NCBI GenBank assembly: GCA_964106915.2
Contig: OZ066929.1
Length of the DNA: 64,000 nucleotides
From: Podarcis gaigeae
Lineage: Eukaryota
Strand: one strand, 5' to 3'
Shown in pieces: positions 3,673 to 45,205 of this stretch; position 1 is the stretch's first letter, and each line of letters starts with the position of its first letter. Made by a program: the position numbers and the translations under genes. Under the pieces are notes generated by a model that saw nothing but the letters and a program-made list of their open reading frames with translations, ran no database searches and was not told the origin of the DNA.

Positions 3673-4466
3673 ACCAGCATAGTTAATTTATCCACTCTCG
3701 TCCGTTTTCCAAGTCTTCCATCTGACTACAGGGGGAGCCAAACCACTAACACTGTTCATCTTATTTCTAGCAATATAAAATGAGCCAGGAAGATGTTGTC
3801 ACACAGCTGTAAATGCCATTCGGGCGACTCCAGGATGGCTGCAGGAAGCTGCTTCTCCCCACAGAGCCACTAAGATTTGCTGGCATCCTTTTAATTAGCA
3901 AGGGTTTGCTAAAGTACTTTGAAATGCTCAGAAGAAAGCCAGAGCCATAATTGCCAAATATTATTGTTCCTTCCTTTTGAAATGGTTCCGCTGGAACAAG
4001 CATGCCAGATAGAGTCCAGCTCTCTCTGCCATTGTATGTTGGGACTTAATCTCAACAGGTAGCTCTTTCCATCAGGTCAAGGTCGAGGGCAGAGGTTCAG
4101 CACTAGGAATCATTTGGGCCAGGAGAGGGTCACAGCTCACCTGCGTTTCAGAAGGGTGCTATGATTTATTTATGATTTGAATATATATTTCAACCTGCCC
4201 TTCAGCTGATGATCTCAGGGCAAGATACACTTTCATTAAAATGGCCAGGCTCCCTTCCCAAAACATGACGGTGGTTTCTACTTGAGTGTAAGGAAGAGAT
4301 CTTTATTCCAGCTAATAGCAGTACAGGCTTAGCAAAGTCCTGAAGTCAAGATTCCAAGGTTCAAGAGTAAGGCTAGAGGTGTGTAATAAAACAGAAGCTA
4401 CAAAGACGGCCCAACAGTTGACACAATCCTCCCACCAAGCTTTTAAAGATGAGGAGGGGCGAGTTC

Positions 4467-4965
4467 TGTCATGGGCCAGGAGTTGGCTTCACCTGCTGAA
4501 CAGCAGCCTGAAGGAGCATAAGGCAAAGTGACTCTACCTGCTGCTGATCAGCCCTGATGAACAAACTGTCATAGTCCTATGCTGCCAGCCATGGCAGAGC
4601 TCAAGGTAGCGAGAAGCTAGCCAACCAGCTGAGTCTCAGGGGGGTACTTGCCCGGAGACAGAGTCCATATGCAAGGTTCAGTCCAGTCCTAAGGTCAGGA
4701 GCATCTCAGTTCATGTAGTCAGGTGATCCGGAGGTCAAGAAAGCCGAGGGTTCAAGGTCACGAGAAGCAAGAAGCAGCAAGGTCTAGCCAGGAATGACAA
4801 ATGTTGTTTCCAGCAACTAACTGAGGCTGGAAACCCTGCTTAAGAAACCTGGAGCCAGCTGGTTCTTACCAGGAGCAAGAAGGCTGATTGGCAGGTGGAG
4901 TCACTTCACCTTCTGCTCTTTCAGGCTGCTGCTCAGCATGTGGAGCCCACTCCTAGCCCATGACA
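4467..4965 (-). mobile_element. Solo LTR-like element with ~85-bp terminal inverted repeats
   Basis: TGTCATGGGC...GCCCATGACA ends; 5-bp TSD AGTTC (4462-4466, 4966-4970); arms match 65/75 without gaps. Confidence 0.85.
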
Positions 4966-5096
4966 AGTTCACTCATGAGACTCTCTCGCCCTAGGAGTTT
5001 GCTGCGGGCACACCCATGCGCTCTGTCTAGGTGGGTGCATCTGAACCTGCCTATGAAGTTGGTGCCTGGTTATGGGCGACAGGTCTGTGTCCTGCC

Positions 5097-5426
5097 TGTC
5101 ACGGTCCGGTTCATGGGCAATCAAAGTCCTGGCAGGGGATGTCAGTACCGGGGGCAAGATGGTGGGGTGGGAGCAGGAACGGGGGTCCAGAAGCCAGGAG
5201 TCCGAGGGTCAAGAAGCAAGGCAGGGAATGTGTTGCTTTGGCAAAGAGCCGAAGGGAAAATGCTGACTGTATATTCCTTCCTGGCTCTTGCCACCAGGTG
5301 CTGTGAGTTACCAATTGGCCTCACCTGTGTGGCTGCGCCTTGCCTCTTCAGAACAAACTTAGCAAGGGCCCAGTCCTGCAAAGTCCTATTGGTCACAGGG
5401 CCCGGCTCCTGCATGCACACCTGGCA
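5097..5426 (-). mobile_element. Gypsy-like solo LTR (330 bp)
   Basis: TGTCA...TGGCA ends; 5-bp TSD CTGCC (5092-5096, 5427-5431); removing it restores the frame of the outer element. Confidence 0.75.
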
Positions 5427-7176
5427 CTGCCCCTCGGCCTCCAGCTCTAATACCACATCCTCCTGTTCAGCCCCCCCCTGGGCTGGTTGAAATCCTTCCC
5501 CCTCCCCAATGAGGCTCTGCACTCTGTAGGAGCGGCAGGGGAGTGAACCAGCAGATCTGCTTCCTCTCTCTGAGTTCTAGAGTCACAAGGGGAGAACCTC
5601 TCTCCTCCGTTCCTGGAGGCTCACCTCCCCTGCCCTCAACTGCTTCTCTTTTTTCCTCATCTGCCTGGGGCTGCCGAACCACACCCAATCCTGGCTGAGG
5701 GGCCCATAACAAAAAACCACCATCAATAAAACAGTAGGAGAGCAACTGAAACAACCATAGAATCGACACCAAACCATGGAGAAACCACAAATCGATCTCC
5801 TAGCAGGACTAAAGCCTCTGGAAGTTTCATAAAACAAGTATGTTTTCACTTGGCACTGACATGCTAGCAGCACCCGTGCTAACTGTGCTTCCATGGGGGG
5901 CATGCCACAAATGAGGTGCCACTGCAAAGAAGGCCCTATCTCATGGGGCCACATTATGCAGCTCCCTCAATAGTGGGACCATGAGAAGGGCCACTACCTC
6001 TAGACCTAAGCACCCAGGTGGGCTGATCCCAGGAGAGACGTTACTTCAGATGCCACCATGAATGCAACCACATTAAAAGAGCTAAAGCTGAGTGATGCCA
6101 AAGAATATTCAGAAACATCCCAGCTTCTAAACAGGGGGAAATGATTGCGAAAGGCTGAAAAATCAGTGCAGTTACCCTGAAGGAAGCAGAAAGCTCTTTG
6201 GGGCAAAATGTTGTACATGGCCGAAAGGCAGGGAAGAACTGAGAAGCTGGGTGCATCTGTCACTGATTATGACAGTTTCTGATACTCCAAAGGATGTATG
6301 AGGGAATAGTGTGTGCATGTGCCCCCCTTCCCAATCCACTGGTCTACACCTGAGGCATCAGGAAACATGCCGTTTCTTCCTTCTTTTGCTTTGTATCCGT
6401 TTTACATGAACAACACAGTGCAAAACTGGAGTTAGAGAATGTTGGATCATCGCTCATCAGAGTCTTGCTTTCTCTAGGCAGGGAGTCTTTAATCCACTGA
6501 TTGTATCTAGCTACACTCTGTAGGTGTTGCTTTAAAAAAAAGAATTATATGCCGTCATTTGCGCTTGAATCTGAAGCTTTCAAGAAAACATTTGCCTGCC
6601 ACTTGGCTGTTGCTCGGTGATTGCTAGGCTGCACATGTCTGTATTTCCCGTCCCCCCCCCCTCTCCCTTTGGTGACATCTCTTTGTAAGTCAGTTTCAAA
6701 GACAGGTAGTCCCCCTCCTTCTCTCCTCCACCCCTTTTGAAGGTCTGTATAAAACTTTAATTACAGTGGCACTGTTTTAACAAAAGGAAGGAAGAAAAGG
6801 ATCATTACATCTTGGGGAACAAGCTGCAGTCAAAAAGGAAACAGGAGGGTGGGGTGGTGGTGGCGGCGGCTCCCCTTCTGTAGAGGAGCACCTTAATTTG
6901 AGCCGCACCCTCTGATAAATGAGTGGCTGAGCCCACGGGGAAGGGGCTGGTTTCTTTCGTCCTTTGGCAGGCAAGGCTCCCTCTCTACTGCTGTTTATCT
7001 TTCTCCAGTGAGAATCCAGATCATTGAACCAACTAGCAAAACTCAGTCCAGGTCTTCCCAGCTCTCTTTGATGGCACTGCTGCTTCCAGGGATGAGCAGG
7101 AAGGTCAGGCAATGGGCCAAACCCCGGGCTGAATGCCAAGTCACAAAATCAATGTCTGAACACCAGGTCACAAAGT

Positions 7177-13100: not shown

Positions 13101-13101
<1 letters not shown>

Positions 13102-13417
13102 CATTTATTCAAAAGTTACAGGGGCTGCTTAAGGCCATTTGCCTCTTAGCTCTCTGCTCTTCTACTTTCACTGCTGGCTGGGTTCTGGGAGAAGGGGGGG
13201 GGTCTGGAATGCTTTCTAGTGATAATGTGTCAGCCAGCTGTTCTGGCTCTGCTTCCCTCTTCCTCATCTCCCATTATCTCCCAACTCTGCCCCTCTTCTG
13301 TCTCAGAGCTGCGACCTTCTGCAAACCACTGTTGTACATCTATACTTCCTTCTTCTTCTCTGGAAGGTTGAGGAGGAGGGGGAGGTGGTCTCCATCATTC
13401 CTCTTCAGTCCCTGACA
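13101..13417 (-). mobile_element. Gypsy-like LTR remnant with decayed internal reading frame; left end uncertain
   Basis: Right end CCTGACA (TGTCAGG on minus); minus-strand AATAAA at 13104-13109; no TSD found. Confidence 0.55.
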
Positions 13418-44566: not shown

Positions 44567-45205
44567 CAAACCCTCTGTCATGAATGAGACACCTCCCAGT
44601 AAAGGTTTGCAGCCAACTGAAGAAAGCAGCCAGGTACAAAGAGAGTTAACTGTCATGCAGGAGGAACATCAGCTGGTGACAACTCCCCCACCCCTTGGAA
44701 TGCCAGCTGATAAGGGATTGACTGAGAGCAGGCGGGAACCCAGCCAAAGCTTTCAGGAAGCTCCAACAGGCAGGGACAGAAAAGGAAGTAGTCTGTCAGA
44801 ATGGGAAGAGATTGGGGCTGATCCAATCCCTCCTAAGAGTCGGCTAAGGGGAGGGCTGTTAGACAGGAAGCAAAACAAGAGAAGAAAGATACACAAGTTC
44901 AATATCTTCTGCAAAACCCGGAAGGGGTCTTCAGAAGGGTCATCTTGACTGATGATGCCGGAGGCTGAGTTAGAGCCATCCGGAGCTATCTGTTTGTTTT
45001 GACAATAAATCATCCTTTTTTGTTAACTACGCTTACTATGTGATCAAGTTGGGGACTGGACTCCTGACACCCTTCAACATTTCTCCAATGAAAATAGGGA
45101 TGTCCTAAGGAAAAGTGGGATACTCCGGGATCAAATCAGAAACTGGGGTGGCTTTTCTGTAAATCTGGGACTGTCCCTGGAAAATAGGGACACTTGGAAG
45201 GTCTG
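44567..45205. mobile_element. hAT-like MITE split inside its left TIR by a solo LTR
   Basis: Reconstituted CAAACCCTCCAACATTTC...GGACACTTGGAAGGTCTG; flanked by CAAGGC on both sides. Confidence 0.75.
44576..45069 (+). mobile_element. Gypsy-like solo LTR (494 bp)
   Basis: TGTCA...TGACA; TSD CCCTC/CCCTT; AATAAA at 45004-45009. Confidence 0.8.

Follow-up and report, generated by a model that had tools for sequence, protein, structure and literature searches.

The locus analysed here raises the question of whether the U3 part of a long terminal repeat (LTR) can hold the remnant of a protein-coding frame, and which protein such a frame would have served. It lies in a 64,000-nucleotide stretch of DNA (the window) from Podarcis gaigeae (assembly GCA_964106915.2, contig OZ066929.1), in which a first-pass annotation had described an LTR-encoded acidic, Ser-Pro and basic peptide with an HMGN-like RRSAR motif and had proposed that it was either a U3 accessory peptide or the read-through tail of pol. 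In our view, the best explanation, to which we give a probability of about 0.6, is that the locus represents a solo LTR, now dead, in which U3 likely coded for the tail of a chromovirus integrase with an arginine-rich end predicted to have acted as a nucleosome tether. Here, we will describe the window element and its family, then the intact relatives in which pol can be followed into the 3' LTR, and finally the possible function of the tail and its relation to known systems.

The window element and its family

The features on which the argument rests are as follows.

4242-5711, minus strand: outer solo LTR of family F1, TG...CA, about 630 bp once the two nested insertions are removed, decayed
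5427-5710, minus strand: acidic part of the U3 coding remnant, beginning at LTR base 2, in the phase used by other copies
5097-5426, minus strand: nested solo LTR of a short-tail chromovirus family, TG...CA, perfect 5-bp target-site duplication (TSD) CTGCC
4969-5094, minus strand: Ser-Pro/basic end of the remnant, 41 codons and a stop (4971-4969)
5011-5028, minus strand: RQSAWV by translation, site of the putative HMGN-like motif
4467-4965, strand not given: second nested TG...CA insertion, TSD AGTTC, 75-nt terminal inverted repeats
4441-4447, minus strand: TATA-like TTTAAAA box of the F1 LTR, about 20 nt beyond the stop with the insertion discounted, function presumed
4302-4307, minus strand: AATAAA poly(A) signal of the F1 LTR, from the sequence
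44576-45069, plus strand: solo LTR of family F2, with 123 open codons from base 2 (frame 44577-44948)
13101-13417, minus strand: solo LTR of family F3, 3'-truncated, with a base-2 frame that is broken in this copy

The outer LTR, flanked by the 5-bp sequences AAAAA and TAAAA with one mismatch, had been taken to end at 4969; it reaches 4242 and is split by the 4467-4965 insertion with its AGTTC duplication. Both nested elements are younger than the LTR that holds them. Excision of 5097-5426 together with one TSD copy (5092-5096 or 5427-5431) joins the two minus-strand frames in phase, as had been proposed, because both frames, the one ending in ...EAEGQ at 5427 and the one running QDTDL... from 5094, use the TSD codon, and RQSAWV is found by translation where it had been placed. 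The restored frame passes from acidic to basic and stops just ahead of the TATA-like box. Its acidic part contains three frame changes relative to other copies (near 5690, 5565 and 5480), rather than the single frameshift first described. Since it carries two nested LTR insertions and these three frame changes, the window copy makes no protein; it is dead, and its candidacy as a protein-coding element is excluded.

The inverted repeats of the 4467-4965 insertion are 87% identical, and its base-2 frame opens much like that of another family, F4, and closes immediately; it may be an LTR turned hairpin-like. Nesting of LTR in LTR is frequent, occurring in the window (4242-5711) and at L019, L095, L155, L157 and L158.

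A genome search returned at least 45 distinct other F1 loci, 67-85% identical to the window copy over the matched parts, of which 31 of 45 could be anchored and 21 aligned well over the basic part. The other copies read in a single phase from LTR base 2 through an acidic run, a Ser-Pro part and a basic stretch to a stop. The annotation had recovered arginines in the window copy by reverting CpG transitions only. Among the 21 aligned copies, the codons at 5064, 5061, 5055, 5025 and 5016 show a near-even mix of TGN and CAN, which therefore points to methyl-CpG decay of arginine codons at five of the proposed sites, and the same mix is seen at 5010, 5004 and 4977. At 5037, which had also been reverted, CAN occurs in 15 of 21 copies and TGN in none, so that an ancestral arginine is unsupported there; the residues at 5019 and 5013 are variable, and 8 of the 16 mixed dinucleotide columns sit on codon positions 1-2. 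The aligned copies thus support arginine at the five places, and the decay pattern is compatible with an ancestral RRSARL; the window copy itself has RQSAWV and not RRSxR[LI].

No internal region came to light for F1: a search for a polypurine tract (PPT) followed by the LTR gave 0 matches, tblastn of pol against the fetched F1 loci found no pol alongside, and the sole flank piece shared between loci is a common mini-transposon. An 11-row F1 profile found none among longer proteins, and comparison of the F1 and F4 tails gave no alignment and no detectable homology (hhalign 0.1%).

The two other window LTRs had been credited with a similar architecture, which holds for their frames and fails for the motif. 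The F2 frame is acidic and then basic, without RRSxR, and 21 of 25 scored copies have a 5-bp TSD. F3, with thousands of candidate copies in the genome, has a base-2 frame that starts without ATG and is open for 107 codons in one copy (L109) and open in others too. Stops are rarest in the base-2 frame in both F2 (27/3493 versus 155/3399 and 283/3489) and F3 (33/3108 versus 208/3072 and 192/3074). RR[ST]xR occurs in 0/30 F2 copies and 1/31 F3 copies, which refutes the notion that RRSAR is common to all three window LTRs. Searches of loci, patterns and proteins found no pol linked to F2 or F3; for the F3 internal region, the pattern search gave 0 matches and the protein search none. A candidate F3 LTR pair on C16 was rejected, as it encloses no pol-like frame.

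Read-through of pol into the 3' LTR

Family F4 was recognized from a young LTR inside a copy of F3, and led to 3' LTRs. In L270, whose LTRs are 99% identical, a 1451-codon open frame enters the 3' LTR in phase, in the order integrase, chromodomain and tail, and ends just after RRSARL; in two further F4 elements (L123 and L085), the chromodomain frame likewise crosses the PPT into the LTR in phase. F4 has the order PR-RT-RH-IN-chromodomain with a PPT next to the 3' LTR, and the LTRs of F4 and F6 have TG...CA ends, AATAAA and 5-bp TSDs. The same build as in L270 is found in a UniRef protein of Podarcis muralis (P0003, 1240 aa, cluster of 15), in which Pfam recognizes PR-RT-RH-IN-SH3-Chromo (Chromo at 1054-1101, E 6.5e-15) ahead of the tail. 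One element of the genome is 98% identical to a Podarcis muralis protein. The tail-bearing protein is already present in UniRef, unremarked.

Read-through extends beyond F4. An F6 element with 100% identical LTRs has a 1331-codon pol that ends 96 codons into the 3' LTR, F5 adds 207 LTR-coded residues, and four further lineages, from a family search, add 70-109. Pol of the tailed families has no stop after the chromodomain and continues through the PPT for 70-210 codons into the 3' LTR, where the frame stops ahead of a TATA-like box after an acidic, Ser/Pro-rich part and a basic end. The base-2 phase is used by all families examined, and a basic cluster stands at the end of every tailed one. 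The tails of F3 and F4 matched no Pfam family, and an ESM Atlas search gave no usable match. Of the two roles first suggested for the frame, that of a pol read-through tail, open and continuous with the upstream frame in full-length elements, is therefore borne out in F4, F5, F6, their relatives and P0003; for F1-F3, no such junction was found. That pol of F1 was also read into its LTR appears probable, and we infer read-through for F1-F3 from the shared phase, LTR build and TSD length, together with selection on the frame. The tail presumably stays on the mature integrase.

The family of the nested 5097-5426 element represents a short-tail state: in 18 of 19 copies a stop ends the base-2 frame after 10 codons, and a chromodomain and PPT lie upstream in L204 and L239-L241. 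In an unrooted integrase tree of 19 rows, restricted to elements of the Podarcis gaigeae genome and P0003, long tails fall on two deep branches.

In four stranded RNA runs from a related organism, the F4 internal region is covered 1-4x in 25 and 26 of 30 bins, almost all in one direction, and most LTR reads continue into unrelated sequence, as from solo copies. A DNA contig of that organism spans the PPT-LTR junction.

Several further observations concern the elements themselves. L269 (G000:C19:12587566-12593050) belongs to a very young chromovirus family, with LTRs 100% identical in the element examined and about 98 of 150 scored matches (hand count) within the 1331-codon open pol frame. The F5/F6 branch (L158, L242-L268) has a degenerate chromodomain, without a Pfam Chromo match in L158 (aromatic-cage positions assessed visually), and ahead of the PPT it carries a second acidic stretch; the F4 chromodomain is canonical. 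G000:C32 is rich in nested elements and in elements with an internal region, which might fit a W chromosome. Predicted lizard proteins P0002, P0004, P0005, P0006 and P0008 run from an LTR ATG into gag or unrelated sequence, and lizard gene models that start at an LTR ATG are probably gene-prediction artefacts.

Possible function of the tail and competing explanations

After removal of one duplicate from the 59 F4 copies examined, 58 reach the motif, of which 43 read RRSARL, 5 RRSAHL and 3 RRSACL; these variants provide a positive control for F1 decay. The motif is retained in a related protein that is 53% identical (P0009). Shuffling of the basic end produces the strict form RRS[AS]R[LI] in about 0.15% of cases and the loose form RR[ST]xR in 6-8%, and with several families examined the F4 motif may still be due to chance. 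RRSARL is absent from F2, F3, F5, F6 and the four related lineages, whose ends are basic, so the trait common to the tailed families is an acidic linker with a basic end. The HMGN likeness first claimed for the window peptide thus stands as an exact match in F4 and a compatible decay pattern in F1, and lapses in the other families.

In HMGN, Dsup and Dot5, the motif arginines act on the H2A-H2B acidic patch (PMC12487698, PMC13347269), and phosphorylation of serine within the HMGN motif has been proposed to weaken binding (PMC12487698). By analogy, the RRSARL arginines of the acidic and basic tail, which pol gains by running through the PPT into the 3' LTR, would insert in the acidic patch in the manner of HMGN2, Dsup and Dot5. 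The chromodomain would read histone tails, a long flexible acidic linker would join the two contacts, and serine phosphorylation within RRSARL could switch binding. Families without RRSARL would rely on another basic segment, be it for chromatin or for import, and solo LTRs would carry the tail frame only passively. For F4, and probably F1, we put forward such binding of an RRSARL-type end, in a two-point grip with the chromodomain, as a tentative proposal at slightly less than even odds. Still more tentative is its general form, namely that lizard chromoviruses have an LTR-borne tethering tail, in which a convergent HMGN-type arginine anchor and the chromodomain dock the integration complex on nucleosomes. 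Complex prediction for the F4 basic segment with Podarcis gaigeae H2A/H2B gave a median of 0.02 (runs of 0.75, 0.02 and 0.02), values that speak neither for nor against binding.

The main rival to nucleosome tethering accepts the tail as real and takes its basic end as a nuclear localization signal (NLS) or a general nucleic-acid-binding segment, the HMGN likeness being incidental. This would fit the basic cluster that ends every tailed family, as opposed to RRSARL, which only F4 has, and the C-terminal end of Ty1 integrase is a bipartite NLS with an acidic linker. We nevertheless regard it as rather unlikely, though as a serious competitor: F4 matches all three key arginines of HMGN, Dsup and Dot5 as well as the serine and leucine, the motif is retained at 53-71% tail identity, and classical NLSs usually need lysines.

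A separate U3 accessory peptide, with its own ATG and made from a spliced or internal transcript like nef or MMTV sag, was the other role first suggested, and appears very improbable. ATG is indeed the second codon in F1, F4 and part of F2, and UniRef models P0002 and P0004-P0006 begin at an LTR ATG. Against this, the frame opens without ATG in F3, F5, F6 and F2's VRN subfamily, it forms a continuation of pol at every 3' LTR seen, the four RNA runs of the related organism hold no splice joint over F4 at a depth of only 1-4x, and the UniRef models fuse the LTR to gag in the manner of artefacts.

Selection on the frame bears on whether the tail mattered at all. Replacement and silent variants were compared between those shared by at least three copies and private ones, with CpG columns excluded; the copies were the best search matches, p-values are uncorrected, and the comparison left out the truncated window copy and three F3 loci that carry nested insertions. 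For F2-F4 pooled, the shared-versus-private N/S ratio is 0.47 in the base-2 frame (p=0.0003) and 1.09 and 1.19 in the other two; by family, replacement depletion gives p=0.027 in F2, p=0.0004 in F3 and p=1 in F4. The F1 signal is weak: the pooled ratio is 0.52 (p=0.098), and of the two parts the basic one gives p=0.038, the acidic one p=0.79. Between lineages, dN/dS of the LTR-coded part is 0.25, 0.29, 0.37 and 0.41 for four distant pairs, with intervals below 1; these pairs are not independent, as two share L259 and two share L258, and have dS up to 1.7 on a protein-guided alignment. The value of about 1 that had been named as telling against coding is thus excluded for distant pairs, but not for close ones (0.54-0.56, intervals including 1). 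Integrase itself gives 0.06-0.27 where dS is unsaturated, and the last 45 codons of one tail pair give 0.18. All 4 indel calls made at the level of lineages in F2 and F4 have lengths divisible by 3; of the shared calls in the F3 frame, 3 of 9 do not. Between F4 subfamilies, net omega is 0.68 (CI 0.20-2.75).

These results indicate purifying selection on the tails of active lineages. The least probable of the explanations considered, that the tail is a tolerated and functionless by-product of stop loss in a purine-rich U3 and the coding look of F1 compositional, could draw on divergent, low-complexity tails, on the lack of significant selection in F4 or the F1 acidic part and on a short-tail sister family that still reached many copies, but appears largely refuted for F2, F3 and the F6 group by the frame-specific shortage of shared replacement changes, the low dN/dS of distant lineages and of those last 45 codons, in-frame lineage indels and the position of long tails on two deep branches. 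Comparison of F4 subfamilies (L121-L150 with L159-L188) gave about 0.03 per site in the U3 coding part and about 0.25 after the stop, which reflects either strong constraint or a recombined LTR.

Relation to known systems

A nucleosome-tethering integrase tail, if real, would be the first case of an HMGN motif on a retrotransposon integrase and possibly a new independent origin of that motif, following Dsup and Dot5; it would also be the vertebrate equivalent of the LTR-encoded targeting domain of plant CRM elements. It would offer a short candidate for the means by which chromoviruses of vertebrates reach chromatin or select it, in which swaps of the basic end between families may alter the target, and the 10-codon tail, the RRSARL tail and the other basic tails would form a natural contrast series. 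LTRs are treated as non-coding, and the thousands of solo LTRs here would be fossils of a selected integrase tail; read-through would also account for spurious lizard gene models that start at an LTR ATG. Among the freely available full-text papers searched, we found none that describes an LTR-coded tail for chromoviruses of vertebrates, and none that describes an HMGN motif on a retrotransposon integrase.

With HMGN, F4 shares RRSARL, the first six residues of RRSARLSA including three key arginines (PMC12487698, PMC13347269), and, as in HMGN, Dsup and Dot5, the motif stands in a disordered, charged context. In contrast to HMGN, the F4 motif is followed by KA and not SA, has no HMGN family match, lies on an integrase, and its binding is predicted. 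Foamy virus Gag, MLV p12, KSHV LANA and CMV IE1 are acidic-patch tethers, in which a short arginine motif holds the viral genome or integration complex on nucleosomes (PMC9040877). These motifs lie in Gag or latency proteins, whereas the lizard candidate is LTR-encoded and on the integrase; the words retrotransposon and HMGN are absent from that review. The U3 accessory genes nef, sag and tas combine their own start with a frame separate from pol, a combination not found in the lizard tails.

Among chromoviruses, the V-clade or Sushi elements have in common with the lizard elements the order PR-RT-RH-IN-chromodomain, TG...CA ends, AATAAA and a 5-bp TSD (PMC6317226, PMC3601003). In the papers searched, we found no description for them of a selected U3 tail of 70-210 codons like that of the lizard families, and the 5097-5426 family represents the short-tail state. 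The closest precedent is group A of the plant CRM elements, with an LTR-encoded targeting domain (PMC3059260, PMC6317226); as in that group, the integrase frame runs into the 3' LTR in F4, F5, F6 and the four further lineages. In CRM group A, as described there, the CR motif replaces the chromodomain, whereas the lizard tail follows a retained one, intact in F4 and degenerate in F5/F6, and the host is a vertebrate. Because the chromodomain is kept, the lizard tail system is not a member of CRM group A; its arrangement is a variation on the known LTR-encoded integrase extension.
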